Part shown: positions 6,456 through 37,804 of the stretch, piece after piece
Numbering within the stretch: the stretch's first letter is position 1
Layout of the letters: each line of letters starts with the position of its first letter
Virus record (IMG/VR): IMGVR_UViG_3300006737_000020
Span: 39,224 to 103,223 of that record
DNA: 64,000 bases
Strand: one strand, 5' to 3'
From: a virus
The notes under the pieces: model-generated
What the model saw: only the letters and a program-made list of their open reading frames with translations
Told to the model about the DNA's origin: nothing
The model's database searches: none
Position numbers and translations under genes: made by a program

Positions 6456-7847
6456 TTATGCGTTCTCTAATGATATTATTCTAGTTTTCAAGTCTTCTAT
6501 AATATCTTGTTGTTCTTTTATGGCCTCTGATAATATTGGGATCAAAGCAGAATAATTTATACTCTGTTTATTAGATATTATCGGATTTCCCATTTCTTCT
6601 GGTAATGCATTTCCATGTTGATCATGAGAACTTGTAAGATTACCGACCCACCAAGTTGTACCATCTTCTAAAAGACTTCCAGATTTATACAGTTTTACTT
6701 CTGTTGCTGTATTTACCACTCCTGGTAGTATAGGTTCTACTTCATCTGCTATATATCCATAACTTGCACTAACAGGTTTATTATATTTTATCCAATCAAA
6801 TGAAACTGCTTTTAATTGTTTTACAATAGATATTGCATCCATCGCAGAACCAGTTAAATATTTTATATTTGTTTTTAGTCTTCTATCAGAAGAACTATAT
6901 GAACCATGAATAGCAAAATCACCATCATTATCCATATTCCATCCTTCCCAGTCTGAACCATCATAATTTAACCATCTAGATTTTTGAGTATCTGTATTAT
7001 AACCATAAATAGCATATTGAGTGCTAATAGCATCTTCATCATATATTTTCCACCAAGCAGTATGTTCAGCTCTTACTTCAGTAGCTGCATAAGTTTCGTT
7101 ACCAGGTAATCCACCTGAGTCATCAGTTGTTTCAATTAATATCTTTGTTGCTCCAGTATCTTGGAAACCATCTGTTCCACCAGCGCCTGTACTTATATAC
7201 AATTTACCTTTAATTGCTAGATCTCCATCAGCTGACATTTGGCCAACCATTGTATCTCCATTTTCATATTGTCCTATTGTTACACTGCCATCATAATGAT
7301 TCCACTTACCATCTCTTCGAATTACTCTAACAGTATTATCTGTATTAGTATCATCATCCCAATCTTGTAATTGAAGAGATTTAATCTCTCGCAATTCACA
7401 ATCATTAAAATCGATATTATCATGAACACCAGCTGTACCAATAATATTATCTACTCTTAATGTATTATGAATCATTACGTCTTCATTTGAAGTATCAATA
7501 GTTAAAGCTAAGGTTGATCCTATATTAGAACTGTTTCCAATTGAAAATCTATTGGATTGGTCATTATCAGATCCTACTGACCAATATGCACTATCTGTTC
7601 TAAAACAAATTCCTGCGTCACCTGCTCCTGTGTTCCAACAAAATATAGTAGGTCCGTATTGAGTAGTACCGTTATTTGATTTAACCGTAAGTTGTGCATT
7701 ACTGGTGCCTTCTATATCTTCTATATGAACTTGGTTATGAAAATAATTCACATCTCCTACATTATCGGAAGATTCTAGTAACACAGGTGATCCTGCCGAG
7801 GCGGCGAATTTATATCTGTGTCCTGCTGTCATTGTTACTGTTGCCAT
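6456..7847 (-). CDS. Tail fibre/spike with C-terminal intramolecular chaperone (Peptidase S74)
   Basis: SSDRRLKTNI...YGYIADEV...INYSALIPILSEAIKEQQ followed by a coiled coil. Confidence 0.85.
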   Translation of the reverse strand: MATVTMTAGHRYKFAASAGSPVLLESSDNVGDVNYFHNQVHIEDIEGTSNAQLTVKSNNGTTQYGPTIFCWNTGAGDAGICFRTDSAYWSVGSDNDQSNRFSIGNSSNIGSTLALTIDTSNEDVMIHNTLRVDNIIGTAGVHDNIDFNDCELREIKSLQLQDWDDDTNTDNTVRVIRRDGKWNHYDGSVTIGQYENGDTMVGQMSADGDLAIKGKLYISTGAGGTDGFQDTGATKILIETTDDSGGLPGNETYAATEVRAEHTAWWKIYDEDAISTQYAIYGYNTDTQKSRWLNYDGSDWEGWNMDNDGDFAIHGSYSSSDRRLKTNIKYLTGSAMDAISIVKQLKAVSFDWIKYNKPVSASYGYIADEVEPILPGVVNTATEVKLYKSGSLLEDGTTWWVGNLTSSHDQHGNALPEEMGNPIISNKQSINYSALIPILSEAIKEQQDIIEDLKTRIISLENA

Positions 7848-7861
7848 TTTATTCTCCTATT

Positions 7862-10800
7862 CTAATCTCGTAAAGCGTTCATTTGTTGCATTGATGTACT
7901 AATACCATCATCAAATCCAGTTATAGCTACTATAACATCTATTAATATTTGCGATTCAACTTCGGTGCCATCATCAACTAAATCAAATCCTTTTATTAAT
8001 CCTGGGTCATGATCTAAAATCATATGCATAACTCTATCTCCTCCTTGTGATCCATCAAATACTAAATTAACTCCACCTGTAACAGCCCTTGTATAATCAG
8101 ACACGTTACCATTTGTCACTGTCACAACTTTGGTTGCAAAATTGGTTGCTACTGCAGAACCTGATAACAACATGCTTGATGCAGTTATTTGTCCATTTGC
8201 TTTCAAGAATGTTTGTCCTCCATCTCCTGAATTACTTGTAAGTTGTGTGCTATCAAATTGCCATCCTGCTATTTGATTGTCATCTGAACCTGCTGTTTCT
8301 CCTAGATGGAATATTGTCCCGCCGGCTCCATTACTTGTTTTTCCTTCAATACCCCATGTATCAACATCATGGTCTTGATACATTCTAACATAGTTGGAAG
8401 TACCTACTCCCGTTCCATCAGATGAAATTCTAATTTCTGTTTGTCCTGAATCTGCAGAACTTTGTCCCATCCATATCATTCCGCCTGCAGAGTCATACTT
8501 TATATAATTATTTGCAATCAACCAACCACCTATTTCACCTGCTGATGATGTGATAGCTCCACCTTTATCAACTTTGAAATTACCAGTATCTATTATATAA
8601 TGGCCTGCAGAATTAATAGTTAAGTTTGTTGCGGCCAAATCAAATGTTTCTGCTTTCATTGTTAATGCAGTTCCATCTTTCTTAAGATAATTATTTGCAT
8701 CTCCATATGCAAGGAAGTCACCAGTACCATCCATGTATATACCAGCATTTGTTCCTGCCACAGATGTGTTTGGAGTTGAACCTAATGCAATCTTACCTGA
8801 ATTGGTTCCACTATCTAATATCATAGTTGATGTTGCAAGATCAAATGTATTAGCTTTAATTTCAACTGATGTACCAGATGCATCAAATTTTACAAAGTTA
8901 GTTGAATTACCATATGCAAGGAAACTACCATCTCCGTCCATATAAATACCTTTATTGGTTCCGGCTACAGATGCATTTGGTGTAACACCTAATGTTAAAA
9001 TACCACTACCACTCAAGATGGCATTACCACCTTTTATTTTATCAGTTGATATTGTCCAACCACCTACAGTTCCATCATGAATAGATGGTTCTTTGTATGC
9101 ATATACTCGATCAACAATTAATGGATCTCCAGCTGCTATATCAGTCCAATTTAAAACAATTAATGAAGCCCATTTAGCTGTGCTAGTTGGTCTATATATA
9201 AATTCATAATCTGTAAATGAAGTTGCAACAGGTCCATTTTCAACACTTGTTCCAGCTATTCTTTCAAATTGGAATGAACCACTTGAATTTTGAGTTCCTT
9301 GCGTCACTTGCCTTGTAGCTTCTTGTACGCCAGCTTCTGAGATACTAGCATTATAAGATACATGAGTATCTCCAGAATCTAACTCAGAATCATATTCTTG
9401 CATTCTAATATAAAGTCCGGATGAATCAACTACTTCTCCTCGAAGCCTTACTTGTACTCGATATTCAGATCCAACTGATACATGAAAGGCTGGCCAGCCA
9501 GCGCCAATATGGGCATCACTATCATTAACAATTACTAGTTGTTGACTTGCTGCTAAACTTCCAGAAAAACTAATATTGGTTGCGGTTGCACCACCATACA
9601 CGGCTTTTACTCCGGCTGGTCTTCCATCAGGCGCAGCTAATTCAAAATTAGGATTATAAATTAAAGAACTTCCTTGAGTGGTTGAACCTGTCTGATTCAA
9701 TGTATTGGCTTCTGTTAAATCTGAAGTTCCAATAGTTACTGTTCCTGCAAATCCTGCATTACCTGTTGCTGTATCAACATAGAATTGTTTTGTATGAATT
9801 CCATCTGCACCAATGGTTATATCTGCATTGTTTGCGGCAAATCCAGAAGTGTCTTTTGTTCCAGAATATATTGCATCTTCTTCAATTGTAAAGCCTGCTA
9901 TTAATCCACCAGATGCTGATATTCCTCCTGATACAATTAAATCTGTTCCGTCAAATTCTAATGATGGATTTGTATCTCCACCCATTTTAAATGTGCCATC
10001 ATTAAGATTAAACTCAGATCCTACTTGGCCACCATCGGTCCAATTATTAGATTGCACTTTACCAGTTTTAACCATATCACCAGTTATTTTGGTAATACCT
10101 TGTTGATATGATTCTTGGTCTAAATCTTTCTTAAGTAGGAAGTCTAAACAACGTTCCAATGGTGTTTCTTTAATATAATTATATCTTGTAGTTGATATAA
10201 TTATTCTACCTCCTCTTGGATTAGTACCATAAAATGCTAAATAGGCTGCAGTTGTATTTGTAGCTATATTACCAGTATCTGATATTGTAGGTATCGAACC
10301 AGATATTGCAATTGGTGCATATGTAGAACCTCCTCCATCTGAATAAACTGTTATTGGAATATTACCTGTATCAGCAGGAGCCGAATCTGACCATACCGAC
10401 CAACCTTGACCGATTGGATCTGTTTCTTGCAATCCAGATCCTGTTGCTATATGACCGTTTTCATATGGATTTGATGCAACACCACTAGTATGCTGTTTAA
10501 TAGGATAATCAGTACCACCTGATCCGGTTACATCTGCACCTGCCATATTATTCGCTTGTACAAATACAGACTGTCCTTCATCAAATAGATTCATAACCAT
10601 CTGTTCTTTTTCTACATTCCATACTTCACCTGAAAATACATATAAATCATATCCTTGATCGTAACCTAAAATATCCGAAGGCGTAGTTGAACCTGTAGTT
10701 GTATTTTCAAAGTAATTTGTATATCCTAATGAACTTGAAATAACTCTACTACCTGGTGTAGGATCTGCTGAAGCTGATTCTATTAATGCAATTCTATAAT

Positions 10801-13800
10801 CTGCCTTTGTTTTATTTGGCATATAAAATGATTCAGAATTTTGTACTTGAATATTTCCTATTATTTGTAATGATGCATCAGCTGCGCTCCACATCAATGA
10901 ACCAGTACTATCTCCTCCTAAATAGAAGTTACCAGCACTATCCATATAAGTTGCAAAACCACCATTATAATATCCCATGTATTGAGATGTTAAATTTAAT
11001 CCTTCAGCTGCTGTATTTGTTGTCAATGTGAATCCATCTCCTCCAAATGCATAATTGGATGGATTATGTAATGATGTAGTAGCTGCGTTAGTTGTATAAG
11101 GTCCTAACATTGAACTGGTTGCTGTTTCTTCTATGAATCCTCCAATCAATAATGTAGTACCGTCCCAAGATAATTTTGGATTGCTAGAACCTCCTAACTT
11201 GAATGTTCCATTATCTAAACTAAATTCAGAACCAACTGATGGGCCCCAATTATTTGATCTTAAATGTCCTGATGTTATAGAATCTCCTTCAATGATTGTT
11301 CTACCAACACCTGCATTAGGACTTAAATATAATGCTTGAACTTCTTCATCAGTTAATGAACCAGTATAAATTCTAAAGTCATCTATTTCACCTTTAAAAT
11401 TATATGCATATTGTGCTCCTTGGTATCCTCCGATGTTAAGATCTGCTCCTACAGCTGGTCCCATTGTTGGATTTCTATATTTTGCCCAACCTTTCCATTG
11501 ACCATTAATATATAAACTTGCAGTCAATGTTAATGTATCATTTACAACAGCAAAGTGAGTCCATAATCCATCATATTCTTGCCAAGTAACATCTGGTCCT
11601 CCTGGATATTCTTGGAAAGGATTATTGTCACCATCACCTGTATTCCATAATATTTTAGTGCCATTAAACCAAAGATCTAATTGAGCATTATTACCAGCAC
11701 CACCAACACCAGCTACTAATGCTCCTCCTCCGTGAGGATTTGTAAATGAAGTATCTGCATCAACTGAAAATGACATTTGAGAAGTATCTGATTTGTCTAT
11801 CTTTAGCCAATGTGCAAATGTATGGTTATCATATAATTGTATTGGATTCAATGTTAACTTACCAGTTTTATCAGTTACACCTGGAAATACTGCAGAACCA
11901 CCTATTTTGGCACTTGAAGAATTGCATGTAACGGCCGTACCGGCGTCTATCTGAATGGTTCCATTTTCATGTTGTCTAAATCCTGACACATCTTGTAATA
12001 AACTACTTGAACCAAAAGATCCAGTTGATATAAATCCATCAAATGGTAAATGTAAAATTAATCCTTCACTTGGAGGAGCGGTTGGTAATGAACTTACTTC
12101 AATCTTTCCTTTGAAATATCCATTGGTTGTATAAATACCATGACCAGTTACTCCATCACTAAATGAACTATCTGTTATTCCTGATAAATCTCCTACTTGT
12201 GCTGCAAGATTCAAATCATATAATCCTGAACCTGTTCTTTCTACAATTTGCATATATGGTGTAAATGGGTCATTTGGATTGGCATTTAATCTAATATATC
12301 CAGTATTAATTTTACCTGTTGATACAATTACCTGAGAACCTGTATATGATTGTGCAGCAAATGGAGAATCTCCTAATGAACCTGATGGTCCATGAGTAGG
12401 AGAACCATCATAACTTATACTCCTAGTTACAAATAAGAAGCCACCAAAGTCAGTATCGCTTGATGCATCAAATCTAGAAGCTGATTGAACTCTTACGTAC
12501 TCTGTAGTAAATCCAGTTGATGATACTTTTTTAAGTGATAATATTTCTCCATATGTAAATCCAGATACATTTGCAATTGACATTGTTGTATCTGTTGCAT
12601 CATGAAAGGCTCCTGGATGTAATGCTGATCCTGTTAACACTGATGAGTTTGCAACATATAATTGTCCACCAACCGCATTAACTGTTTCTTTTTCAAATAC
12701 TGCAGTAGATAATGTTCCTCTTATTCTTGCATTCTCTACTTCTAGGAATCCTCCTGACACCGCAGTTAATCTAAATCCTGAACCTGCTAAGTTTGAAACA
12801 AATCCATCTGATTCAATAGTTCCTTCTTTTCTGATGATCATATTACCACCAGTTAATTTTTCATTATCAAATGCCCAACCAGCAATTTGATTATCTTCTT
12901 CTCCTGATTCTACATTGGCTCCTAAAGCAAATAATATATTGCCTCCAGATTTGCCCATCAATCCCCAATTATCACTTGCAGCAAAATGTGTTCTTACAAA
13001 ATCATCTGCAGATTTTCTAACAAGTAATTCAGGAGTAGCTCCTCCTTCAAGGAATGCATTTGATGATGATAACATATCACCGTTTATATTCCAACCTGCA
13101 ATATCTCCTCCATCAAATAATACCTGTGATCCAGTTATTCTACCATCAGATCTTAATATCAAGTCTTCATTTAATGATTTAATTACATCTGTTTGTACTT
13201 CAAATCCACCAATACTTGCAGATACAAATTTGGCTAAACCTTGAGATGTAATAGATGCAGATGCATTTGATAATGTTGATGGCGATCCTCCAATTGAAGC
13301 AGGAGTTTGAATATTATCAGCTGTAATTGTTCCTTGTACTGTTAATGTACTTCCTAAAAATTGTAAGAAGTTACCAGCTGCTTTATCACCTAATAATATA
13401 TCAGAACCTGTAATTGTTCCATCAGCTGATACTTTAAATGCTGAAGAAGATATAAATGATACTGGATCTGCTGTATCTAATGATGCTGATATTCTCCATC
13501 TATTAGATCTATATAAAGAACCACTTATAAAATTAATTCCAGCTATTTGATTTTCTGATCCTAATTCAAATATTTTTTCTGTTCCTACTGTTCCTAATAG
13601 TCCCCAATCAGTTGCACTATTATAAAACATATTTACTGTATTATTTGTATCAGATTGTACTTTTACAAACGGTGTATTATCTCCTTGCAATACAATATAA
13701 TCACTTGTAGATTTTAAATTTGTTCCATCTATTGTCCATCCAGCTACCACTCCTCCATCAAATTGTACATCAGATCCTGTTACTTCACCTGAGTGTTTTA

Positions 13801-16800
13801 CTTTAAATGTACTTGAACTAATAAAATATGTTTGAGTAGAATCATTTAATTCTACCCCTGAGGTTTCTAAACTATGGTCTCCTAATGTAAATCCTCCTAT
13901 CAATCCTGCACTTGCAGATACTCTACCATCTGAATCTACTTGGAAACCTGAAGATGAAATATGATATGGTCCATCTGCATCTAATATAACTGAATTATTA
14001 CTTGATGATAATGTAGTTGTTCCTATACCCCAACCACCAATAGTTCCTCCTGCTTCTGCGGTGATTGTTCCTTGCATGATAACATCACCTTGTCTATCTA
14101 AATGGAAATTAGATGATGTAATTTCTATTGCTCCATTTGCACCAGATATAAACGAATCATCACCTCCTAGGAAGAATGAATCAGTACGTATTTCTAAACC
14201 AGCTGGTTTTCCAGAAATTGATCCTGATGTTGCAAATCTGAAGAAACTTGATGAGTCTTGTACAAGTTCTAATCCTACACCACCATAGCCATCTGGGGAG
14301 TCAGGTAAAACAGATGCACTATAAAATAAGAATCCTGATCCTTTACCTGCAGATGCAGATGTAAATCCTTGATAACCTATAGACCTAATAAATGCTGAAC
14401 TAACACCTGCAAGTTCTATACCAGATCCTACTGTATTACCAATTGTTATTGAACCTGTTATAAGTCCGCTATCACCTTCAAAATAATTGTTATCGCCATC
14501 AAATATAGCTCCTTGGGCATAAGTTTCAGTTTGTGCAGGAGCTCCTAAATAATCTACATATTGGAATCGGAATGCCATTGGTGCATTCATTGCATCAGTT
14601 GGTATTCGAATATTCAATGTATGGAAGTTAGGAGAAAATCCTGTATCTAGATTTGCCGTTAAAGATATATTTGTAATAAACCAACTTCCTTTTCTAATTA
14701 CAAATATTGGTGTAAATGTTTCTGTATATTCAGGTACAAATTCTACTCTATTAAATACTGCTGCTCCTCCTGCTACTGATTCAAGAGTTCCTAAATAATT
14801 TCCATATTGTGAATCTGTAAATGGACCTGTTAATCCTCCACCTATCTGTGATTGCTGGATACCTCCATTATATGTTCTTGCATCACTTATTGATGAACCT
14901 GACATATATACATCTATCCTTGCATCTGTAGGAGATACATTTTGAGCATTCATTGAACCTGTATTAATTGCCTTTGCAAAAAACTGAAATGCATATTCTG
15001 AATTTGCAAAACATATTGGTCTAAATTCTTTTTTCAATTGCATTTTAACACCTGTATTTTGTGTTAATGGATCAGTTGATTTTATTTGTATAGATTCATT
15101 TAAAGTATCCATATCAAATTTTCCTTCACCACCAGTGAATTCATAATACAATCCAATATGGTTTTGATCTGCAATTTGTCCTATTTTAGTTTCTGTTAAT
15201 CCTAATGTTACATCAGCTGAAGTAGATCCTGTATCGACCATCACTTCTTGTAATTCTAATATTGATGTTCCAGTATCTATAAAGTCTCCTGGAGCTCCCA
15301 TCATTTTATAAGAAGTTTTAACTCCCATTACATCACCAGTTGCTGGTTCTATATTTGATAATTTAATATGAGCAAATGACATTGAATTTTCTGTCTCAGC
15401 TGTCATTTGTGGAACCCAGAAGCTCATTGTCACAGTTGATGGATTAAAGTCAATTATATGTTCTCCATCTTGAGGTTTACTAACTCTTCCAACTGAGAAA
15501 TCAAATGCCGGAGATAATTTAGCTGTGGTTGAATTTTCTATATCTACAATTGTTGCAACATATGTACAATCTATTGTTTTTGATCCTCCTCCTTCACTTA
15601 CATGTTCACTTGCTGCTGATACATGGACTGCCTCTCCTGCTGAATTTAACCATGTATCATTTGGAACGGTAGCTACTGGTCTATTAATTATTACTGTTGC
15701 ACCTAAATGTAAACTACCTGTTAATGGTAGTCCTACAAATGTTGCTGTTGTGGTATCAGGTGGATTATATACAACGGTTTGGATTGATGTAACTTCATTT
15801 TGAGGAGCTGCCATCAAATCAGCCGCGGCCTTAGTTGGTGGTGGTAATGCTGTTAATGTAGTTCCACCAGGTCCTTGATTACCAACATTTCCAAGTGCAT
15901 TATTTATAACCTGTGCCGGATCGGCTATCTGTAACTGTGTCTTTGTTTGTGCTGCAGTTAAATTATTTATTGTACCTGCAACTGCTGGTGAATTGGCTAA
16001 TGTAGATGGCATTGCAGATGCTACCTTTGATTTTCCCATTGCTTTTGCAATTGTCTTACCAGAAAATTGTGCTTCTTGTACCATCACCATATTTGCATTT
16101 GCTTGTGCCTGTGCTGCAAATGCAGGCCAAACAGCTGTTACTACTTGGTTTGCAATTCCTGCTGCAGTAGGTACAGATATATTTGTAGTTATAGTTGAAT
16201 ATCCTCCTGCAGGTCCCGTTCCTGAAACTGACATACCTGTTGCAACAGATCCTGATACTTGTTTAAAGAATGTTGGCAGATCAGTTATCTGGGCAAATGT
16301 TTTTACTTGTTCTGAAATAGCTACTTTAGGTTGTTGTAAAAATATTATTTCTGAACCATTTCTTCTATTTGGTGCAATTCTTGTTGTACGTTTCCATAAT
16401 ACATTTGGTAAATTTTTATATAAGTCTGAATTTTGATCTGAACTATATCTATACCTCTGTCCTGATTCCGGATCAAGCTGCATACGACCAGCTAAATAAA
16501 ATGTACATCTTCCTTCTGGTGTATCTGGATATACCCATACGGCTAATACCCTTACACCATCTTTTTCCATATATGGAAGTACATCATAATAAACTGGATC
16601 GCCATTATAATCTAATATTTCTACATATATATTAGAATCATCTACTAGTGAGTCAGGATCACCACGAAACTTAAACACATTTTTACCTGCTGTTAATGTT
16701 TCTGGAAATTCTACTACTTCGAAAAAGTCTTTGGATAATGGATCACGATCAACTACGTCATACCGTAACTGTTCATTATCTTTTAATCCTATATAAGAGG

Positions 16801-16819: not shown

Positions 16820-16869
16820 ATATGTTCCCTAGTTTTACCTTAAATATTTATTATAAATATGGTAAAACA

Positions 16870-20921: not shown

Positions 20922-20927
20922 GTATAC

Positions 20928-20958
20928 TAATATAAAGAAAACTTTTCAAATAACCAAA
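20928..20958 (-). promoter_or_regulatory. Host-type promoter upstream of primase
   Basis: TTTG-N20-TATATTA. Confidence 0.7.
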
Positions 20959-21369: not shown

Positions 21370-21370
21370 A

Positions 21371-22039: not shown

Positions 22040-22078
22040 TCTCGTGACTCCTTTTATTAACCTATTTAATATAAATAT

Positions 22079-24214: not shown

Positions 24215-24237
24215 TTATATTCCCTTTATAGTAAAAA

Positions 24238-24265
24238 CTCTCTTATACTTATAAATATAAGAGAG
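24238..24265 (-). terminator. Terminator-like hairpin overlapping a late-promoter motif
   Basis: CTCTCTTATA-N8-TATAAGAGAG followed by TTTTT on the minus strand. Confidence 0.65.
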
Positions 24266-24300
24266 CTTTAAATATGATGAATTATAACGATTAGAATCTA

Positions 24301-25716: not shown

Positions 25717-25741
25717 ATTATTTTATCCCTTATTTATAATC

Positions 25742-26416: not shown

Positions 26417-26471
26417 AGTGTTTCCCTTTTTATTTTTAAATAAATATGTTTATCATAGAAAAGTATACCAT

Positions 26472-29400: not shown

Positions 29401-32273
29401 TCAATTGCAATATGTGATATAGGCACTGGTATGGCACCTACAAGACCTGCAGAGTAAATTATCATACTTGCTGTTATTGCTGGTTTGAATCTCCACTCTC
29501 TTGTTTGATCAGGTATTGTATCTCCTGCAGATAAATACTCTCTTTGGAATCCCCAATCATATAAATCTGTTTTATAATGATCATGAGTAAATTCTACATA
29601 TGAACCAGATTGTATTTGCAATGCATATGAGAATTGATCATATATTCCTGCTGGTTCAGATTTTGGCATTTTAGGTCCACCATATTCTCTAATAGATAAT
29701 AAAGATTCTGGAATACCGTAACATGATAATAAAGCTTTAACTGATCTAGATGTTCCTTTTGTTTTTAATAGGTGAGGTAAATTATTAACTACTCTTCTCC
29801 ATACCTGCTTTGTTAAATCTTCTTTTGGAGTTGCAAATGATACGGCTGATGATTGAGTTATATATTGTGATTTATTTGTATATAAATCTGATATTTCTGC
29901 ATCTGTTAATGTTCTGTTATATATTCTAAACTCATCTAATGAACCAGTAAAGTTACTATAAGGAACTCCTGTATTATTAGTATCTCTTGCACCAAGAATT
30001 GGTTTTGGATAATCACCTGTTGATTCAGGTCCTATATCATGAGATCCACTAACTGAAATATCTGTGCCTTCTACAAATGTTCCATTAAGGTATGCAGATG
30101 CACTTTCTTGTCTATTAACATTAAATACTATGTGATGCCAGCCATTTGATACACCCCCAGTTGATGTTCCTTCTAATGACGTTGTATCAAGATATGATGA
30201 TGAAAATATCTTTGTAGTATGTTTATCAAGAGTAACTGTATGTTCTCCATGAGAGCCTGAATAGTTTTGTACCCATCTCAGCGTTCCATATGGAGCATTT
30301 GCATAAATTCCCCATCCTGCATCATTTCCAGATCCTGATAATGCGCTAAATACATATCCGGTTGCATTTGTAAGGTCTGCATCTTTTATCCAGAATGATA
30401 CTGCATAATCATCTGTTCCATAGTCATATGGTTTATTATATTTTAGATAATTTGTTCCATCAAATTTTCCGCCCCAACCATGTGCGCCTTCTTCAAATAT
30501 TGGTTTATCAAATGCTTCTAATGCTTGATCTTTTACTATACCATAATCTATAAAATTTTGTCTTGCAAAGTCAGGCCTTCCTTCATCAAATGGAACATAT
30601 AATATTAAATTATCATCTATTCTTCTATCATTGATATTTCCAAATGATCCTAATTCATCTGTACCTAATAAGTATTCAAATAAACGTTCATGTTGATTTC
30701 CGTTTTCTAAATGCCAACCAAATGATTTTGCAGTTTCATATAATAAGTCTTTTGATAAACCATGTCTATGATGTTCATCTCTATTGTATACATCCGTTTG
30801 ATGTTTAACATATGAATACATAATATCATAATGATGGCCAATCATATGTACAAATGTTTCAAACTCAGAATTATTATTATCTTCTCTAATATGCTCTGGT
30901 ACTGTTTTTACTAATGCATGATCGTTATGGAAATCCCATAATGAAGCAGATGCTTCTAATGCATTATACCATACTTCTGCTTGAGATGATGTTGAATGAC
31001 ATAATGTCCATTGGTTAGCTGTAAATTGTTTATCTGAAGTTGTTACTCCGTATCCTTCTTTTGGCCATGGCTCAACAACAAACGTTTCATGTCCAATATT
31101 GGAACCTGAGGTTGCATTTGTATAAATACTTCCTGTATTATATTGATAAAGATATTTTTCAAAACCATCAAAACCGCCTAAAATATTATCTTTATATTTT
31201 TCGTATAAAGATTTATTTGCATTTACTTCGTTAGATTCTGATACTGAATTTAATGTTTTAACTTGATCATCATAGTATTCAACTAATTCTATTTTATGTT
31301 TAAAGTTTGCAACTCTTTCTTTAGCTGATGAGTAATGAACAAAGTTTTGGAATCCAGAATAATCAATTCCTAACTCTACTCCTTGTAAAGATCCAGAAAA
31401 CATTTTATCTATAATTTGCTGTGAAGTCGATGTCGCAGATCCTAATAAATCGTTCCAGTTTTGGAAATTTGTTTCGTTAATTTTTGACCATTTTGCATCC
31501 ACTTCAAAATTTGGACCTCTCATTGCATTGGTTGGAGATTCAATTGGCTTTCTGTAAAGTACTACATTATCTGTATATGGTTGTCTTACTTGTTGAACTA
31601 TCCATAGTCGTTGTTTTTCTTTGTAATTTTCCTGTAATGGTTGATATAACTTAATATATAATTCTCTAGAATCACTTAACCATCTATAATTTACAAATTG
31701 TGCTAATCTATTTCTACCAAAATTCAAGAATAATAAGTTCATAAACCCATTATCACCACATAACTCATTTCTTCTTGTATGGAACATTGATAACTGTTCT
31801 GATGTTGTTAAATCAGATATATCTAATGTTTTAATGGCCTTTTTCTTTTGTTTTATATTTTCGTCACCAATATATACTTTTAATTCTGTACGATCTGCAG
31901 ATATTTCTTTTATGTATAATGATGGATTTGCATCATCACCTACAATTGGTCTAAAAAAGTTAAGAACAAATTTATATGTTCCTTGCTTGATTCCTAAGTC
32001 ATCAAAGTTTTTATATAAATCAAATTGAACAAGACTGTCTTCAGTATTAAATGCTTTCCAGTGATCAGCTGTATGTTCACTTGTGATATAATTACTCATC
32101 ATATCATAAACATGTAACTCTACTGTTTCATCTAAAGCAGGATCATCAAATTTACGTATTTCAACTACTTCACTTGCAATTACTTCTTGGTCATCAGCTG
32201 TGAGTTGTAATGCATCAATTGGTTTATTTGATGCTTTTATGTTTTCACTATTTAGATATTGTTCTATTGCCAT
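26472..32273 (-). CDS. Large baseplate wedge-like protein with LamG-like domains
   Basis: KTKGTSRSVKALL resembles the KGT motif of P2 gpI / T4 gp7-type wedges; LamG motifs (WHHIVF...FTGSLDEFRIY). Confidence 0.7.
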   Translation of the reverse strand: MAIEQYLNSENIKASNKPIDALQLTADDQEVIASEVVEIRKFDDPALDETVELHVYDMMSNYITSEHTADHWKAFNTEDSLVQFDLYKNFDDLGIKQGTYKFVLNFFRPIVGDDANPSLYIKEISADRTELKVYIGDENIKQKKKAIKTLDISDLTTSEQLSMFHTRRNELCGDNGFMNLLFLNFGRNRLAQFVNYRWLSDSRELYIKLYQPLQENYKEKQRLWIVQQVRQPYTDNVVLYRKPIESPTNAMRGPNFEVDAKWSKINETNFQNWNDLLGSATSTSQQIIDKMFSGSLQGVELGIDYSGFQNFVHYSSAKERVANFKHKIELVEYYDDQVKTLNSVSESNEVNANKSLYEKYKDNILGGFDGFEKYLYQYNTGSIYTNATSGSNIGHETFVVEPWPKEGYGVTTSDKQFTANQWTLCHSTSSQAEVWYNALEASASLWDFHNDHALVKTVPEHIREDNNNSEFETFVHMIGHHYDIMYSYVKHQTDVYNRDEHHRHGLSKDLLYETAKSFGWHLENGNQHERLFEYLLGTDELGSFGNINDRRIDDNLILYVPFDEGRPDFARQNFIDYGIVKDQALEAFDKPIFEEGAHGWGGKFDGTNYLKYNKPYDYGTDDYAVSFWIKDADLTNATGYVFSALSGSGNDAGWGIYANAPYGTLRWVQNYSGSHGEHTVTLDKHTTKIFSSSYLDTTSLEGTSTGGVSNGWHHIVFNVNRQESASAYLNGTFVEGTDISVSGSHDIGPESTGDYPKPILGARDTNNTGVPYSNFTGSLDEFRIYNRTLTDAEISDLYTNKSQYITQSSAVSFATPKEDLTKQVWRRVVNNLPHLLKTKGTSRSVKALLSCYGIPESLLSIREYGGPKMPKSEPAGIYDQFSYALQIQSGSYVEFTHDHYKTDLYDWGFQREYLSAGDTIPDQTREWRFKPAITASMIIYSAGLVGAIPVPISHIAIEYTGSYSGSANYGRVHYVHGQGAGSTTPMTASSDWAPLYDGNFWNLRYYWEATGSDSGIYNIAASTNVTYHVQVQQASDYVKGKLIHSASLSVTPTYNAHNNAWSTATGATAGYLGGQTGSTGGNTFKVNQYLNHAIGNGSTSGGASDPAGIGTFTGSFQEYREWLENIGQNAFDKHTLNPKSYVSSISATSSFDTLVRHYTFGTNQKGYNHAATIYISSSHPNQAIQDFSDPVNDGTTSWATASNFQTPWDTVNNDHYERVEETYYIHGPSIGGKNLKSEKIRIEDNKLVHPLNRETRGEISQYDTVSNDSAKLGIYFSPQDMINKDIFNQIGNVALDDFFGSAEDQYKELYPKLKTFAHRYWRKYENDNDINAYIRIFALFDFSFFSQLKQLIPVRTNADLGLIVEPSVLERSKVMVEAEPSREELHYEDFIPDPFPDPIMDILPLTASVDALEPLEAEPMHYTASISDIQTMEGEPMHYTGSLNFEVPVHSNLSGSLTRSIVTVNDVINGTNLGVYKIATGSVDGDDYTDPGIDLFRIGDGYPGATYRYIGVRYDTTNGGWITQSRHELEWSPTGSVVMEQRKSPMFSKKVFYYGPENAASHHFRLDNFNGSRMLDSRPTYNHSSGSGFESVNTSGTATQKAASTARFETITHNNWTGQAMLFDLQGPQLSATHNRGGTRIKLTDDIMLPKSDNTGKFSISVILKPASGSGEGDIAFLGRGDATNPGFWINNYGNLVARSEDATYWGTLGSGFQTAEWNSRWDGGQAWPVTNDAARDTNHLAYTYDGTDPENATMKFYLNGRLQNTVTKDVTGDVGLGRWRIRHIGMGYKSSANTYAYSGSMAQLQIFDDYCLSAQEVKTLNKYPDMQANRDWGDERGRKGRIYMTRARRSNGYGTFTDLGTFSTSHSLQPADYRDDALDSSYYEGSKLTAPGINEFSNQTTDGEEVVKITLRNRYSLVYKKDLPSGGNLDVR
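27955..28028 (-). repeat. 51-nt period tandem repeat (E.EPMHYT.S) in the baseplate wedge-like gene
   Basis: gtataatgcattggctcaccttc versus gtataatgcattggttcagcttc. Confidence 0.8.
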
Positions 32274-32281
32274 TAGTCTTT

Positions 32282-34159
32282 CTATCCTTCAAATAATTTG
32301 TTATATGGTGCTAAATGTGATTTTCTATAGAAACTATCCTCAGCTATATATTTTTTATACCTATCTCTAGTTAACTCTGCACCTCCAGCTCTTAATCCTC
32401 TTGTTCCGCCATTATGTTCATAAACTTCAATTGTATCATAATCATCATTGTCCCCTCTACCAAAATTGATTCTATAATCATCACCTATTATCCATTTTTC
32501 TCTACCAGGTGAAAAGAATGGTGAATCAGGAATTCCTGTTCTGAGCCTAACCTTTATCCCTTTTGGAATAAAAATAGAAGTTAAAGAATTTTCTGTCCAG
32601 TTACTTAACCTAATATGACCAGCCGCCCGTGCATAGTGACTATGGGTACTATTACCATGCCTATGCGATCTTCTAGCATTTGCATGATATTTCTTACCAA
32701 CCTCAAGTTCATAATTCCAACCAGCTCCGTCACTATGTTGAGATATTTTTACTCGTTCTGATCCGTCTAGCGTTGCTTTAGTTACCATCGAAGATGCAGG
32801 ATATCCTAAATATCTTATCTGGCTCCAATCCATTGCTGTATATGTTCTATTATGATATTCATCGTAATTATTCTCTGCTGTGTTTGCTTCAACAGATGAT
32901 GGTAATTTTTTTACTGTTGCGTAAAAAGCAAGTCCACCAGTATACTTTCTCACCTCTCCTCTACATACCATAAAGTAACCACCTTTTAGACCTCCAGTAT
33001 ATCCTCTAATAAGTTCACCTTCCCATTGTTTAGTTGTAAACTCATTTCCAGTAGGAGTATATATTTGAGAACGTTTAGCAGGCTTTTGTGTTTCTTCTGG
33101 ATGGTATTCTGTCCATCTAGATGACATGTCTGGTAAAAATGCTTTATCATAATCACTTAAATCATCATCATCAAAACCAGCTGGTCTTATAAGATCTCCT
33201 TTTTCAAATGTTACTCTACCATCTCCTAAATTAAGATCAACCTCATTAGTATTATATTGACAACCATCTTTTTCAGCTGGGCCCCATTCTACATCATCTA
33301 AATCGTTACTTACTACTAATCGCTCTATTGCTGTAGTTTCTGTTGTGATTTCAGCTTTTGGTACTATATCTATATCATCATATGTCATGTCTCGATCTTT
33401 CATGAACACTTCTAAATTTCTACCTTCTCTTGTATTTGTTAATCCTTTAACTGGTGGTGGATTGACACCTCCATCAAAATGATGTACAGGTGATCCTCCA
33501 ATTGAATTATCATCTCCTTGAGTAGAACCATTATTACATCTATATCGTACACCTTTCCAAACAATAAATATCATTCCTGCAACTCCTGTTAAGTCTCCTG
33601 CAGAATTAAATTCTGTTTTCAATTCAAATTTATCACCAAATTGTTCGGTTGCTGTTGGCGGATCTTCTACTTCTTCTTCGTCGGTTTCATTATCTCTAGA
33701 ATCAACAAAACGAGTCTCAACTTCAATTTGTGGTTCAGATGGGTTATCTAAAACATTTATTGTAACTTCTTCAGGTAAATCAGTTTGTTCAAATCCTTTA
33801 AGATAACTATTAAAAGTTGTATCTACAGCTTCCATAAATGATTCTATATCATATTTTACAGATTGTAATGGTATTTTAATTGGAAAGTTTTCATTAGGAG
33901 TAGCTTCTTTATATTCAATAACACCACGAGGAGTACGTAAAGGTCTTTGTTCTACTAATCTAATATCTTCATTATCCTTTGCAATCGTACCATCTGGTTT
34001 TATAAGGTCTCCTTGATTTTGAATAGTAGGAGTTTGGCCTATCAATCTATCTAAACCATTAACTTTTTTATTTAATCGTTTTAATATATGATCATCAGTA
34101 GCTTGCTGAACATCTACTGCAGACTTTCCTCCAACATTATGTGCTTGATAGTCTTCCAT
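32282..34159 (-). CDS. Putative structural protein; C-terminus resembles a beta/gamma-crystallin motif
   Basis: NSLTSIFIPKGIKVRL...DNDDYDTIEV; located in the baseplate operon. Confidence 0.5.
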   Translation of the reverse strand: MEDYQAHNVGGKSAVDVQQATDDHILKRLNKKVNGLDRLIGQTPTIQNQGDLIKPDGTIAKDNEDIRLVEQRPLRTPRGVIEYKEATPNENFPIKIPLQSVKYDIESFMEAVDTTFNSYLKGFEQTDLPEEVTINVLDNPSEPQIEVETRFVDSRDNETDEEEVEDPPTATEQFGDKFELKTEFNSAGDLTGVAGMIFIVWKGVRYRCNNGSTQGDDNSIGGSPVHHFDGGVNPPPVKGLTNTREGRNLEVFMKDRDMTYDDIDIVPKAEITTETTAIERLVVSNDLDDVEWGPAEKDGCQYNTNEVDLNLGDGRVTFEKGDLIRPAGFDDDDLSDYDKAFLPDMSSRWTEYHPEETQKPAKRSQIYTPTGNEFTTKQWEGELIRGYTGGLKGGYFMVCRGEVRKYTGGLAFYATVKKLPSSVEANTAENNYDEYHNRTYTAMDWSQIRYLGYPASSMVTKATLDGSERVKISQHSDGAGWNYELEVGKKYHANARRSHRHGNSTHSHYARAAGHIRLSNWTENSLTSIFIPKGIKVRLRTGIPDSPFFSPGREKWIIGDDYRINFGRGDNDDYDTIEVYEHNGGTRGLRAGGAELTRDRYKKYIAEDSFYRKSHLAPYNKLFEG

Positions 34160-34160
34160 T

Positions 34161-35297
34161 TTATCTTACCACTTTGAAATAATAACCATTATCAAAATAT
34201 TTAATTGTTCCATCTGGATATTTTGATTTGATTTTAAATTTATAATATCGTTCGGGTGCTAATGAATTCATCCAATAAGTAAAATAACTTCCGTTTGAAT
34301 CAACACTTAATTTTGTATATGTATCATCATAATCTAATATAATCTCATCTGTATTTGCATCATATACCGCATATGAACTTGTATAACTTAATCTTTGTGT
34401 TTCATTTAAGTAGAATGATGATGTTGTATATGTCTTAGTTGGATATTTTGATCTAGTTCCGACTCTAAATGTTACTCTACTTCCTTCAGGATATTTTTCT
34501 TCTATATTTTTAAAGAATGCAATTGGTCCTCCGTTATTAGTTTGATGAACTTCAGTTAAAGTAGCATCTGTCACGGTATGATCTCTCCAAACCACTTCTA
34601 ATTTTGGTGCATATATTGTATGAGTATCTTTTGCAAAATATTTTATATTAAGAGAATCACTATTACTTGATTCGGCTGAATATGATTGTTTTAATATTAA
34701 TCCATAATTTGGTATAGTTCCATCTAACCATTTATTAACAATGGTAGTAATATCCATTCTAACATCTGCAGATTCATATGCGAATGATTGAGATGCTTCA
34801 TATCCAGAACCTGTTATCCAAGTTCCTCCTCCTAATGGTTCTTGTATTCCTAATTGATGTGCACTATGAGCAGATCCTGTGTTCCATCTTGTTGCAGAAT
34901 CATAATCATCAGAATAATACCATGAAGATCCGTTACGAGTTTCAGGTATATCTGCATAATTTCCGTTTCCATTATTCCAGGATTCAGAAACTGGATATGC
35001 ATACAATGTAAAATCTATTGGCATATCAGATGCATAAATACTTTTCATGTTTAAATAAAACTTACGAAGCGTACTTCCTACAGTTCCATCAACTATAGAT
35101 TGAGATAATGCAGTAAATTCTGGTCCTGAAAAATCTAATAATATACGACTATTATATGTTCCAATTTGAAATAAGTCATCTAATCGAGAACCAGAAGTTG
35201 TTTTTATTAACTCAAGTATCTGATCAATTCCAGTATTCTTACTTGGAAATTTTTCATATAATGTTGTATCTTTATTGGCATATATTTGATATTGCAT
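34161..35297 (-). CDS. Structural protein with DNRLRE-like beta-sandwich domain
   Basis: KDTTLYE...SRILLDF...VSESW...DITTIVNKWLDGTIPNYGLILK...PKLEV. Confidence 0.6.
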   Translation of the reverse strand: MQYQIYANKDTTLYEKFPSKNTGIDQILELIKTTSGSRLDDLFQIGTYNSRILLDFSGPEFTALSQSIVDGTVGSTLRKFYLNMKSIYASDMPIDFTLYAYPVSESWNNGNGNYADIPETRNGSSWYYSDDYDSATRWNTGSAHSAHQLGIQEPLGGGTWITGSGYEASQSFAYESADVRMDITTIVNKWLDGTIPNYGLILKQSYSAESSNSDSLNIKYFAKDTHTIYAPKLEVVWRDHTVTDATLTEVHQTNNGGPIAFFKNIEEKYPEGSRVTFRVGTRSKYPTKTYTTSSFYLNETQRLSYTSSYAVYDANTDEIILDYDDTYTKLSVDSNGSYFTYWMNSLAPERYYKFKIKSKYPDGTIKYFDNGYYFKVVR

Positions 35298-35309
35298 ATT
35301 CTATTTCCC

Positions 35310-37190
35310 TTATATTCCTACAATTCTACCTTTGATATCTGAATTAGGATATCTAATTTCAAATATACATGGATCTAATGATGGATAAATTATATTATTT
35401 AATGTTGCAGCTTTGATATCATATACATTTCCTGAATATCCTGAGTTTAAATCATATAGATTTTTTATCGTTACATCTGCAACCGTTTGTACTCCTTCGA
35501 CATTATCTAACTTTGTATAAACATCGGAAATTACAATAGGTGCATTAATCTGCATATTATCTACATGTAATAATTCTTTAAGTTTATTTACACATCTTAA
35601 TACTACTTCAGAACCATTAAAGGTTGGTTTTGGTATTACTTCAAAATCAATACCTAAATTAACAATAAAACAATTCTTAATATTAATTGCATCCGTCATT
35701 AATCTAAACTGTGATATATATGTTTTAAGATTTTGTTTAATAGCAGGATTCAGAGCTACCAATTGTTTGGTAGAATTATATCCCATTGCATATATGTTCA
35801 TTGCTAATGGATTAGGTATTTTAGCTTCAGGATCTGTTGAATCTACTTGTTCATCTTGAATAATATATGCTTTAGCTACATGTCCAAATTTTGGTGGCAT
35901 GGTATAACATCTTAAGATATAATCTTCTTTTGTTACTGCTCTATTTTGTGCTGCAAATACACTTAATGCTTTTTGTCTTGTAGTTTCTACTGACTCTGCA
36001 GAAGCTCCTCCTCTAGAAGGTAATGGATTATTTACTGCTACCGATCCTTTTGCTTGATTTAATATTGATGTATCTAAATTTTGGATTGAATTTGCATAAG
36101 ATGCAAATGAAACTTCTTGTATTGAATTAGCCGGTACATTATCTGAAAGTCCTTTACCTCTTGAGTAACGAACTGTTAAGGTAGTTTGTGAAGGTGCTTG
36201 TCCATATGTACTTGAATATAAAAAGTTTGCAGGATCAATTGATACATCAACTTCTCTATTTAATCCTTTTATTCCTAATCCAACATTTTCTGGATTTGGT
36301 ATTAAATCTCTATCATGTTCTTCAGATATACCTGCACCAAATTGAATTTCTAATTGTTTATCTGCTCTAAATCTTGTTACAAATCTTTTAGCTGTTCGTC
36401 TTAATTTTAAGATATATGGTACACTACTATTATAAGAACTTAGTTCTGGATCTATCATTGGTGTATTTCTAATACCTTCTTGAATTGTATCCTGAGCTAA
36501 ATACGGAACCTCATACCACTTATTACCTTGTTCATCAATAATATCAACTACATCAATTATATCTGTATCTTTCAATACTATCTTATCATATATTTTAGGT
36601 TCTTGAAATCTGAAATCTTCTTGTGTTATTCCTCCTGATACAGCTGCAACTTTTTTCTTGATTAAGAAATATGTTGGTGTTCCAGTTGCTTCATCAATTT
36701 GATATACAGTTACTGTTCTAGGATTAGTTGCTGAACCTGTTGCGCCAAAATCTACTGGATCAACTGATCTAAATTCAACACCTGTATTTGATTTTGCAAT
36801 CATTCCTGCTTCAATATTTAATGCATATCTCCAATCTGGTTTTGCATTAACACCTGTACCAGTTGCTGGCACTGTTTGATATACATCCAATTCTACTAAT
36901 GATGATATCATATTTTTTGTTTTATATCCTAATGCCGCTGCAATAGAATTAATATTTGCTCTTTCTTCTGCATATCCCAGTAATGATTCTTTAAGATTAC
37001 TATCTGAATAATATGATAATACATCGCCTATATAAGCCGACATTTCCATGAACATCATTCCTGGTGATGATTCATTAAAATCATTATAAGTATTTGGAAA
37101 ATAATTTTTTGCGAAGTTAACTAAATTTTGTCTAAATTCACCAAAATCCCTACTTAAATATTTTATATCTTTTTTAACTAATTCTGCCAT
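35310..37190 (-). CDS. Baseplate wedge subunit (T4 gp6 / BaseplateJ-like)
   Basis: RDF...YNDFNESSPGMMFMEM, IQFGAG, QNRAVTKEDY motifs; directly downstream of the gp25-like gene. Confidence 0.88.
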   Translation of the reverse strand: MAELVKKDIKYLSRDFGEFRQNLVNFAKNYFPNTYNDFNESSPGMMFMEMSAYIGDVLSYYSDSNLKESLLGYAEERANINSIAAALGYKTKNMISSLVELDVYQTVPATGTGVNAKPDWRYALNIEAGMIAKSNTGVEFRSVDPVDFGATGSATNPRTVTVYQIDEATGTPTYFLIKKKVAAVSGGITQEDFRFQEPKIYDKIVLKDTDIIDVVDIIDEQGNKWYEVPYLAQDTIQEGIRNTPMIDPELSSYNSSVPYILKLRRTAKRFVTRFRADKQLEIQFGAGISEEHDRDLIPNPENVGLGIKGLNREVDVSIDPANFLYSSTYGQAPSQTTLTVRYSRGKGLSDNVPANSIQEVSFASYANSIQNLDTSILNQAKGSVAVNNPLPSRGGASAESVETTRQKALSVFAAQNRAVTKEDYILRCYTMPPKFGHVAKAYIIQDEQVDSTDPEAKIPNPLAMNIYAMGYNSTKQLVALNPAIKQNLKTYISQFRLMTDAINIKNCFIVNLGIDFEVIPKPTFNGSEVVLRCVNKLKELLHVDNMQINAPIVISDVYTKLDNVEGVQTVADVTIKNLYDLNSGYSGNVYDIKAATLNNIIYPSLDPCIFEIRYPNSDIKGRIVGI

Positions 37191-37201
37191 TGGTTATTCC
37201 C

Positions 37202-37804
37202 TTAATATGATGCCATTGATCCTGCGTCAACTGTTGTAGTACTTTCACCGTTACTCACTAATGTTATCTCTTGGTTTGCTCCTTGTTCGGTCACTCTAAA
37301 TGTAAGTTTAATAAATAAATAATTTGTAAGATGGTTTTTATCATCTCGGTTATCTATATTAATATTTTTGATAATAATATAAGGTAACCAAAATTTTATA
37401 GCATCTTGTATTTCTTTATTTAAACTAATTATTAGTTCTGGTGTATTTGGTTCAAATACTCTATCTTTAATTCTTACTCCAAACTTTGGTTGCATATATC
37501 TCTCACCTGGATATGTTAATAACAGGTTTTTAAGATTTGTTAATGCTTGCTGTTCTGTTGTATATGATAACGGAAATTTACCAGCTAATTTTTCTGCTAA
37601 TTCATTTGCACCAGTTGAACCAGATACTTCTCCATATGCTAAATTTGGTTTTGATGTTACGCCAGCAGCTGCTCCATTAAACGGAAGCATTACTCCAATA
37701 GCCTTGTCAGCTTCCATATCATTAACATTGTAACGATATATCGGTCGACCACCACCTTTTAAGTAAGCTGATTCTTTTTTGCTTTTGAAGTATTTATCTG
37801 CCAC
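37202..37804 (-). CDS. Baseplate wedge subunit, T4 gp25-like
   Basis: NLKNLLLTYPGERYMQPKFG...FEP...AIKFWLPYI. Confidence 0.88.
   Translation of the reverse strand: MADKYFKSKKESAYLKGGGRPIYRYNVNDMEADKAIGVMLPFNGAAAGVTSKPNLAYGEVSGSTGANELAEKLAGKFPLSYTTEQQALTNLKNLLLTYPGERYMQPKFGVRIKDRVFEPNTPELIISLNKEIQDAIKFWLPYIIIKNINIDNRDDKNHLTNYLFIKLTFRVTEQGANQEITLVSNGESTTTVDAGSMASY

Follow-up and report, generated by a model that had tools for sequence, protein, structure and literature searches.

Genes at the locus

The window analysed here is a stretch of 64,000 nucleotides, bases 39224-103223 of a single viral contig of 103,223 bp (IMG/VR record IMGVR_UViG_3300006737_000020) with a CheckV completeness of 58%. 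Its source is an uncultured T4-like myovirus. The window has a GC content of 31% and carries all large open reading frames (ORFs) on the minus strand. Positions 6456 to 37804 encode tail fibre and baseplate proteins (Table 1), in which an earlier note, made from the sequence, had recognised a recurrent ordered tripeptide, [ST][GAS]S, and had proposed it as candidate sequon for a glycosylation of the virion. The present analysis concerns this tripeptide, in the following the motif, and its glycine subset [ST]GS; counts are given as observed versus shuffle expectation. Apart from the family matches listed in Table 1 and the gp6-like and gp25-like wedge proteins, the large proteins of this range fell outside the Pfam and PHROG families. 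The feature reaches past the range: a motif-rich protein of 494 amino acids (aa) is encoded further on in the window, and upstream on the contig the tail sheath ([ST]GS 5 vs 0.7), a gp13-like adaptor, a 228-aa protein and a 1400-aa repeat fibre are also rich in the motif.

Excess of the tripeptide in virion proteins

The motif excess is genuine and far beyond chance. The hand counts of the earlier note were reproduced exactly, with 50, 32, 15, 9, 8, 5 and 5 motifs in the proteins of 2985, 1933, 711, 494, 471, 463 and 378 aa. Enrichment over composition-preserving shuffles was present in these structural proteins and absent from non-structural proteins, with z-scores of 8.2 (2985 aa), 10.4 (1933 aa), 7.1 (711 aa), 6.5 (494 aa) and 4.2 (471 aa). 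The control tripeptide [ST][GAS]T occurred in the 2985-aa fibre at expectation (14 vs 16.6), in line with the dozen or so of the earlier note. The terminase and an 819-aa protein had no motif and a 1053-aa SbcC-like protein had one, which agrees with the near-absence noted for non-structural proteins. The peptides YLTGSA, YKSGSL and NLTSSH were located in the S74 fibre, and a 17-residue repeat with LTAS, YTAS, YTGS and LSGS was found at residues 1406-1454 of the 1933-aa protein, both as described before.

Because the motif had been picked by eye, all 8000 tripeptides were scanned in the seven proteins. TGS ranked first (37 vs 6.0, p 1.5e-17) and SGS second (35 vs 6.7, p 1.1e-14); SAS was enriched 3.1-fold, and TAS, TSS and SSS about 2.2-fold. 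Shuffling in blocks of 10, 20 and 40 residues left z-scores of 6-11 in the large proteins. The order of the residues was decisive: in the motif-rich set, 46 TGS stood against 14 TSG, 8 GTS, 14 GST, 9 STG and 13 SGT, and 48 SGS against 11 SSG and 10 GSS, while TGT occurred 5 times. Block shuffles and order permutations thus ruled out local composition or low complexity as the source of the excess. Codon usage at the three motif positions equalled the overall usage, therefore the signal is located at the protein level and a DNA-level motif was dismissed. Decoration domains shared by paralogues were another candidate. A BLAST self-comparison of the twelve motif-rich proteins revealed only two short similar pairs, covering almost none of the sequence, and outside these segments the excess persisted (full motif 183 vs 54.6, [ST]GS 93 vs 20.0); this excluded paralogous domains, although short diverged repeats escaped BLAST. 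The other 91 ORFs of the contig (22.8 thousand amino acids, kaa) had no motif excess.

The suggestion that the motif crosses unrelated folds was borne out for the LamG and S74 proteins. It failed for the gp6-like, the gp25-like and the 625-aa protein, which were not enriched (Table 1), thus the motif is no mark of those folds. Part of the excess resides in internal repeats. The 1400-aa protein (contig positions 25989-30191, upstream of the window in the neck gene region) lacked a family match and contained 47 motifs versus 13 expected. Units of about 57-62 residues follow each other in tandem along it, and each of them contains HI-TAS-G-x-I-S-[AS]-S-G. The 2985-aa fibre had about six motif pairs spaced by 13 residues, I-SSS-xFxVxxxGx[IV]-[ST][GA]S, which suggests a repeated beta-hairpin unit. 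Since the motif is part of the repeat consensus in both fibres, these instances are not independent of each other.

Table 1. Coordinates (window positions) and motif content of the proteins discussed, observed vs expected
Protein	Position	Strand	Family match	[ST][GAS]S	[ST]GS	Remark
Large terminase	936..2519	-		0		non-virion control
S74 tail fibre, 463 aa	6456..7847	-	Pfam PF13884, E 8.7e-12 (C-terminal S74 intramolecular chaperone); PHROG tail fibre families	5 vs 1.8		
Fibre, 2985 aa	7862..16819	-	no match in Pfam or PHROG	50 vs 18.0	27 vs 7.2	
LamG baseplate/fibre protein, 711 aa	22079..24214	-	Pfam Laminin_G_3, E 7.8e-10	15 vs 3.0		
Conserved baseplate-region protein, 471 aa	24301..25716	-	no known family: none in Pfam or PHROG; no Foldseek match of the model in the PDB	8 vs 2.1	7 vs 0.6	
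LamG-containing baseplate protein, 1933 aa	26472..32273	-	Pfam Laminin_G_3, E 3.5e-18	32 vs 6.2	20 vs 2.2	
Baseplate-region protein, 625 aa	32282..34159	-		0 vs 0.8		internal negative control
Baseplate-region protein, 378 aa	34161..35297	-		5 vs 1.9	3 vs 0.5	
gp6-like (626 aa) and gp25-like (200 aa) wedge proteins	35310..37804	-		1 vs 1.2; 1 vs 0.3		inner baseplate, untagged
Protein, 494 aa	59992..61476	-	weak tail-terminator-like PHROG match	9 vs 1.6		

Residue specificity

A specificity matrix was built on 554 proteins (295 kaa) of the clade of related phages described below. With G-S fixed, only S (6.4x) and T (5.5x) were raised at the first position, any other residue reached at most 1.4x. 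At the middle position G (5.5-6.4x) was preferred over A (about 3x) and S (about 2.2x, close to C), an order that follows side-chain size. At the third position essentially S alone was raised, while T remained at 1.0-1.2x. The flanks favoured V, L, I or aromatic residues at -1 and V, L or A at +1; Pro was depleted (0.1-0.3x), and Asp, Glu, Arg and Lys were also low at most flanking positions. The motif is position-specific, order-dependent, independent of the fold and present in non-homologous proteins, properties generally expected of a sequon. In its graded specificity, S or T at position 1, G>A>S at position 2 and S only at position 3, it behaves like the recognition site of an enzyme, as far as sequences can tell. 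The earlier note had set the motif apart from two known sequons, and rightly so. The Bacteroidota sequon D-[S/T]-[A/I/L/V/M/T] is not concealed in it, as Asp at -1 was at 0.3x and I, L, V and T in the middle were at about 1x or less. The same applies to N-x-[S/T]: N-G-S was at 0.9x, and the motif-rich set contained 9 NGS and 6 NGT, numbers similar to or lower than those of the permuted T, G and S.

Distribution among related phages

Nine relatives with 43-95% identity were retrieved from IMG/VR, then 80 more, and the excess was present in all of them. In 88 of 88 related loci [ST]GS was enriched 4.5-10x (pooled 2077 vs 346, 6.0x), the full motif 3.5x. Two members of this clade are in culture, the Flavobacterium phage immuto, grown on Flavobacterium sp. 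LMO8, and the Microcystis phage Mel-JY01; in the baseplate and fibre regions of both, SGS and TGS were among the most enriched tripeptides. Four further genomes, complete or nearly so (G011-G014), recovered solely via a gene for a 419-aa protein treated below, had divergent genes of the 471-aa family and showed TGS and SGS as the top two tripeptides (3.9-6.0x).

Outside the clade the excess disappeared. It was not observed in the baseplate and fibre proteins of T4 (7.2 kaa), in Rhodothermus phage RM378, which has a distant homologue of the 471-aa protein, or in the uncultured 484-kb phage LR756508, save two or three sites retained in its own 471-aa family homologue. In Prochlorococcus phage P-SSM2 (14.3 kaa, including the 5195-aa gp7), TGS (8 vs 11.7) and SGS (12 vs 11.3) were not in excess. 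Thus the motif is not general to phage fibres, a possibility ruled out by T4 and P-SSM2, nor to LamG-rich giant baseplate proteins or to phages reported to have many glycosyltransferases (GTs). Arthrobacter phage KellEzio, with a GT weakly similar to the 419-aa protein (E 3e-4), had no motif excess; ORF calling was unreliable at its high GC content and this lead was dropped.

The complete clade genome G008 (IMG/VR 3300031857_000018, 169,328 bp) allowed a view on all virion proteins. About ten were motif-rich: the sheath, the adaptor, several fibres, the outer baseplate and, mildly, the major head protein. The orthologue of the 378-aa protein had 8 motifs versus 2.4 expected. Replication, packaging and inner baseplate proteins of G008 were at expectation. 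The contig of the window lacks homologues of two heavily tagged G008 fibres (1044 aa, 46 vs 11.5, and 841 aa), hence unrelated sequences acquire the tag. It is well supported that the tag is specific to a large clade of aquatic T4-like phages and is placed on outward-facing virion proteins, namely fibres, outer baseplate, outer sheath domains and neck.

Conservation, turnover and structural context of the sites

With more than 5500 homologues in metagenomes, the family of the 471-aa protein is very large. Across 120 of these homologues, the most distant at 53% identity, seven of the eight sites were near-invariant, and S176-G177-S178 was present in 120 of 120. Mean identity in the family was 0.86 at motif positions and 0.56 at other S, T and G residues; the rare substitutions stayed within the class (T->S, G->S/A). 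Such a pattern points to purifying selection on the sites. Outside the clade, a vSGS site was kept as far as RM378 and a second site as far as LR756508, the others were confined to the enriched clade.

The 711-aa family followed another pattern. Its 51 homologues contained 6-16 motifs each, on average 12.0 versus 3.0 expected, distributed over 93 alignment columns, a number that alignment error may inflate. Of all instances, 58% were in columns common to less than half of the sequences. A steady density with shifting positions would be the behaviour of a tag or shield rather than of a fixed structural residue. The glycine of the LamG signature G-x-[IL]-D-E-I-R-I was flanked by the motif in only 12 of the 51 sequences, therefore only some lineages carry the tag on top of this residue, which the fold determines.

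AlphaFold2 models were obtained for the 471-aa protein (mfb37d2dceaab) and the 711-aa protein (m34663be20b2b), with predicted local distance difference test (pLDDT) scores of 72 and 78. Of the 23 sites mapped on the two models, one occupied a two-residue hairpin and one a mid-strand position; the others were at the ends or starts of strands, at helix N-termini, in a helical turn or in loops of low confidence. An explanation by ordinary beta-turns, named in the earlier note as a possible refutation, covered very few of the 23 sites. A turn depending on glycine would not tolerate the series G>A>S.

Glycosyltransferases and the sugar island

No GT was found on the contig of the window, in accordance with the remark that no such enzyme was visible in the window. 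The contig is collinear with G008 from 11.5 to about 95 kb of the latter, and the sugar island of G008 is located at 147-163 kb. The expectation of GTs and sugar-nucleotide enzymes elsewhere in the genome was therefore pursued in relatives, where it held for all eight clade genomes of at least 86% completeness (immuto, Mel-JY01, G005, G008 and G011-G014); it did not hold for the window's own contig. These eight genomes share a core of three genes, a GT4 of about 496 aa, the GT4-like protein of 419 aa and a GT2 of about 216 aa. Comparison of G008, G005, immuto and Mel-JY01 revealed the core as syntenic, adjoining a gene for a PD-(D/E)XK nuclease and with identities of 35-74%, while the sugar genes around it vary between genomes. 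The core may be present in the phage of the window as well.

In G008 the island encodes four nucleotide-sugar enzymes (a UDP-glucose/GDP-mannose dehydrogenase, an epimerase/dehydratase, an RmlD-like reductase and a DegT-type aminotransferase) and at least seven GTs: three GT2, a GT7-like, a GT17-like, a GT1/GT4 and the 419-aa protein. None of the island proteins had a predicted membrane segment. The closest solved relative of the core GT4 was the chlorovirus GT B736L (3OY2, E 2.5e-10), with a similarity limited to the C-terminal GT-B half. The 419-aa protein fell into virus-only RfaG/GT4-like clusters, and among 50,697 cultured phage records only immuto and Mel-JY01 gave full-length matches. 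The GT2 was not found in T4, RM378 and LR756508, and all three complete outgroups tested lacked the GT2 and 419-aa genes; a GT4 without the other core genes was present in LR756508 and RM378. In RM378, an ORF annotated as UDP-galactopyranose mutase-like (32985-34136) is located about 2 kb from the homologue of the 471-aa protein; this phage has a GT4 and no motif excess.

Nine incomplete clade records were without the core. In G008 the core is about 90 kb distant from the structural genes, hence partial contigs anchored on those genes would rarely reach it. One candidate exception, G006 (83% complete, no core), was discarded, since its sequence breaks off within the bordering nuclease gene (G006 138927-140594). 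Metagenomic contigs of the clade tend to end ahead of the sugar island or at it, perhaps owing to a hypervariability within populations that disrupts assembly.

Three classes of acceptors were considered for these enzymes. Hypermodification of DNA with glycans by GT clusters is known from phages (10.1101/2023.12.21.572611). For virion DNA of immuto, liquid chromatography with ultraviolet detection and tandem mass spectrometry (LC-UV-MS/MS) yielded canonical dA, dC and dT together with fdPreQ1 replacing dG, and no glycosylated nucleoside (10.1101/2023.04.13.536721), thus DNA is an unlikely acceptor. A search of the clade genomes for TET/JBP enzymes found none and has little weight, because the control genomes were silent too. 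At the end of the G008 genome (168424-169326), a weak match to queuine tRNA-ribosyltransferases (E 1e-3) may represent a DpdA-type protein, as in immuto. As to host envelope glycans, no flippase, polymerase or initiating transferase was found in the G008 island, although the island could borrow host flippases. A four-transmembrane protein near the island, considered as a GtrA-like flippase, turned out to be the holin of a lysis cassette. Virion proteins as acceptor are consistent with the motif and with the GT repertoire, both read from sequence, and we infer that the core GTs would act on the tagged virion proteins.

Comparison with known glycosylation systems

Freeman et al. are said to have established virion O-glycosylation by mycobacteriophage-encoded GTs in 2023 in Cell Host Microbe. 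We know of no short ordered sequon for the glycosylation of mycobacteriophage virions. As described in two papers citing that work, capsid and/or tail proteins of mycobacteriophages are O-glycosylated by phage GTs, and the coat shields the virion surface (PMC11652166, PMC11256854). Both cases would share phage-encoded soluble GTs acting in the cytoplasm before or during assembly, here deduced from genes of relatives and predicted to be soluble. The differences are considerable. The mycobacteriophage modification has been shown experimentally in siphoviruses of Actinobacteria, whereas the T4-like myoviruses of aquatic bacteria are known from sequence; they have a sharp tripeptide at dozens of sites per protein, a preference for tail and baseplate over capsid and a far larger sugar island.

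With regard to a serine-specific tag at multiple sites, the bacterial autotransporter heptosyltransferases (BAHT; TibC/TibA, Aah/AIDA-I) may be the nearest mechanistic analogue, although the enzymes are unrelated. They are soluble cytoplasmic GT-B proteins that hyperglycosylate many Ser, not Thr, in loops of a beta-rich surface protein, e.g., Ser-313 and Ser-322 in the peptide SASKVIQNSGGAVITNTSAAVSGTN (PMC4358343). The serine preference parallels the third motif position (T 1.0-1.2x); beta-rich outer targets are a further likeness, and sites in loops or at strand ends may be another. Unlike the GT4-like and GT2 core of the clade, BAHTs are dodecameric and iron-binding and serve one dedicated substrate without a strict tripeptide. 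Pfam scans of the island gave only GT2, GT1/GT4, GT7-like and GT17-like families, in which no search aimed at BAHT was included.

In chloroviruses, the major capsid protein Vp54 is glycosylated in the cytoplasm by enzymes of the virus itself, and the sequons are atypical. These viruses resemble the clade in having their own sugar-nucleotide enzymes and several soluble GTs, among them the related GT4 B736L (PDB 3OY2), but their glycans are N-linked to Asn on the capsid of a eukaryotic virus, whereas a Ser/Thr acceptor on phage tail proteins is the candidate here. The O-glycosylation of Bacteroidota acts in the periplasm on exported proteins, while virion proteins stay in the cytoplasm. It also uses a three-residue sequon, and the phylum includes Flavobacterium, the known host of one clade member; the depletion of Asp at -1 and the middle position G>A>S differ, and one clade member is reported on a cyanobacterium. 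A DUF1975 insert and S-x repeats define the GtfA/GtfB system of serine-rich-repeat adhesins. The Pfam matches of the GT4-like proteins were confined to Glycos_transf_1, Glyco_trans_1_4 and GT4-conflict, DUF1975 was not among them, and the targets carry isolated tripeptides in place of long Ser-x tracts.

Origin and function of the motif

The more general claim of the earlier note, a short motif selected across exposed virion proteins in the manner of a recognition site, has to be seen as upheld by the graded specificity, the conserved sites, the turnover at held density and the restriction to a clade. The more specific claim, O-glycosylation of the tail by a phage enzyme, remains a candidate reading with partial support, from the tag behaviour and the GT core of relatives. 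Phage-encoded O-glycosylation is the best-supported mechanism, with a probability that we put at roughly 0.5. The evidence for it is circumstantial and consists in the correlation of motif and GTs, the elimination of DNA as acceptor in one cultured member and the lack of membrane components in the island. According to this mechanism, soluble phage GTs would read the motif in the cytoplasm as an O-glycosylation site, probably at the third-position serine. The core, consisting of the B736L-like GT4, the virus-only 419-aa GT4-like protein and the small GT2, would initiate the glycan, to which additional GTs and the products of the variable sugar-nucleotide genes would add a lineage-specific outer part; the outcome would be a sugar coat on the tail. 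We consider somewhat short of an even chance, and hence tentative, the full picture in which the clade, abundant and distributed globally, coats tail, baseplate, fibres and neck, the GT trio writes on phi-[S/T]-[G/A/S]-S-phi and the hypervariable island diversifies the outer glycan.

Several observations weigh against glycosylation of the tagged proteins. No GT is present in the 103-kb contig itself, which is 58% complete and ends short of the syntenic island region. Chemical evidence of a modification was not found, and a literature search yielded no paper on the virion chemistry of immuto or Mel-JY01. The large GT islands of marine myoviruses are usually attributed to the modification of host surfaces or DNA (PMC12801897). 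The clade record G003 (63% complete) is motif-enriched, yet a nuclease of 34% identity is followed by unrelated genes, and the core was absent from its 110 kb. The best 80 matches to the 419-aa protein in IMG/VR were all at least 43% identical and from the same broad clade, therefore a phylogenetically independent comparison of motif and GTs was not available. The association appears, on these genomes, to be essentially one evolutionary event, a contrast of one clade with outgroups, and any clade-specific gene would show it. In the repeats of the 1400-aa and 2985-aa fibres the tag is inseparable from the repeat consensus. The vSGS site is conserved in RM378, which lacks the 419-aa and GT2 genes, and many sites are closer to invariant than glycosites typically are, a pattern that suits a structural role as well. 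The restriction of the tag to virion proteins speaks for the mechanism, as does the location of 26 of 27 sites of the sheath, the head protein and the adaptor outside the segments aligning to T4 gp18, gp23 and gp13, segments that we take to be inner cores, with outer or insertion domains in the remainder; an exclusion from the conserved cores is only suggestive, because it was not significant after correction for S/T/G composition (1 vs 1.9, p ~0.07 if the cores shared the enrichment).

The main rival is a structural explanation, in which the tripeptide would be a lineage-specific structural or assembly element at strand ends, helix caps and tight turns, free of covalent modification, and the GT island would serve another purpose. 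The position of sites at boundaries of secondary structure, their near-invariance, the site shared with RM378, the motif in the repeat consensus of two fibres and the overlay on the LamG glycine in some sequences all agree with it. We nevertheless regard it as unlikely, since the contexts are heterogeneous (hairpin, strand start and end, helix N-terminus, disordered loop), positions turn over at kept density, and the homologous or analogous proteins of T4, RM378, LR756508 and P-SSM2 do without an excess. Besides the G>A>S gradient, which a turn dependent on glycine does not tolerate, general structural propensities do not predict the 5-6 fold difference between S and T at position 3. Still less probable is a tag for a reader other than a GT, e.g., an enzyme of phosphorylation, acylation, phosphoglycerol transfer or similar, or a phage chaperone or assembly factor. 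The sequence evidence makes a reader or writer of some kind probable, and the link to the GTs is correlative and due to a single evolutionary event. A clade-specific kinase, acyltransferase or chaperone did not turn up, though no systematic search was made; the GTs are the only clade-specific enzymes found so far, and a soluble island with multiple GTs needs an acceptor, for which DNA appears excluded in immuto.

A further idea takes host envelope glycans or phage DNA as the substrates of the GT island, which the motif would accompany by coincidental clade ancestry, and we hold it for quite improbable. It corresponds to the usual interpretation of such clusters in marine myoviruses, GT clusters are known to hypermodify DNA, and P-SSM2, without a motif excess, is reported to have many GTs (PMC12801897). 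The DNA of immuto, free of glycosylated nucleosides, and the predicted solubility of the island proteins, among which flippase, polymerase and initiating transferase were not found, speak against it, and the motif itself would be left unexplained. That the excess is a statistical or compositional artefact, a concern raised by a motif picked by eye, by S/T/G-rich fibres and by counts in internal repeats, has been refuted by the controls. The two glycine tripeptides led among 8000 without prior choice, the excess survived 10-residue shuffles, order permutations and the removal of BLAST-similar segments, it was replicated in 88 further loci and 6 further genomes, and it was absent from the equally S/T/G-rich fibres of T4 and P-SSM2.

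If the serines are glycosylated, no sequon of a phage-encoded system for protein glycosylation would, to our knowledge, have been defined before this motif. Glycosylation of the tagged proteins would also, as far as we know, give the first evidence of a sugar coat on tails in T4-like phages from aquatic bacteria. Such a coat would be a viral glycan shield directed by a sequon, analogous to those of eukaryotic viruses and made wholly by phage enzymes in the bacterial cytoplasm. A function would be assigned to the large GT islands of marine myoviruses, for which host envelope or DNA is the usual guess as target. The consequences would extend to host recognition, the stability of particles, grazing and the evasion of antibodies or defence systems, and the compact pair of tag and enzyme might be used for cytoplasmic glycoengineering. 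With immuto and Mel-JY01 in culture, the claim is directly testable. Unmodified serines would call for a structural explanation of a sharp, clade-specific and order-dependent tripeptide.

Further observations

In the 463-aa fibre, SSS at residues 318-320 coincides with the N-terminal border of the S74 domain as matched by Pfam (residues 320-378), the place of the conserved autocleavage serine in this domain family. A C-terminal module of about 90 residues is common to the 471-aa and 711-aa proteins (32% identity, E 5e-9). Within both families this module is the best-conserved part and reads EYNF[ST]NNP..TGS..YITT[VI]GLYN..LLAVAKL..K[LI]D[FY]. A 342-aa protein with an N-terminal hydrophobic segment (window positions 45379-46407) had 4 motifs versus 0.8 expected (z 3.7), including TTTSSST. 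The 537-aa sensor kinase encoded by bases 143465-145078 of G008 combines two PAS domains and a histidine-kinase ATPase domain with two membrane segments at its N-terminus. Its gene adjoins those of the holin, a peptidoglycan-binding protein and a lysozyme, and in phages it is unusual to find such a kinase beside the genes for lysis.

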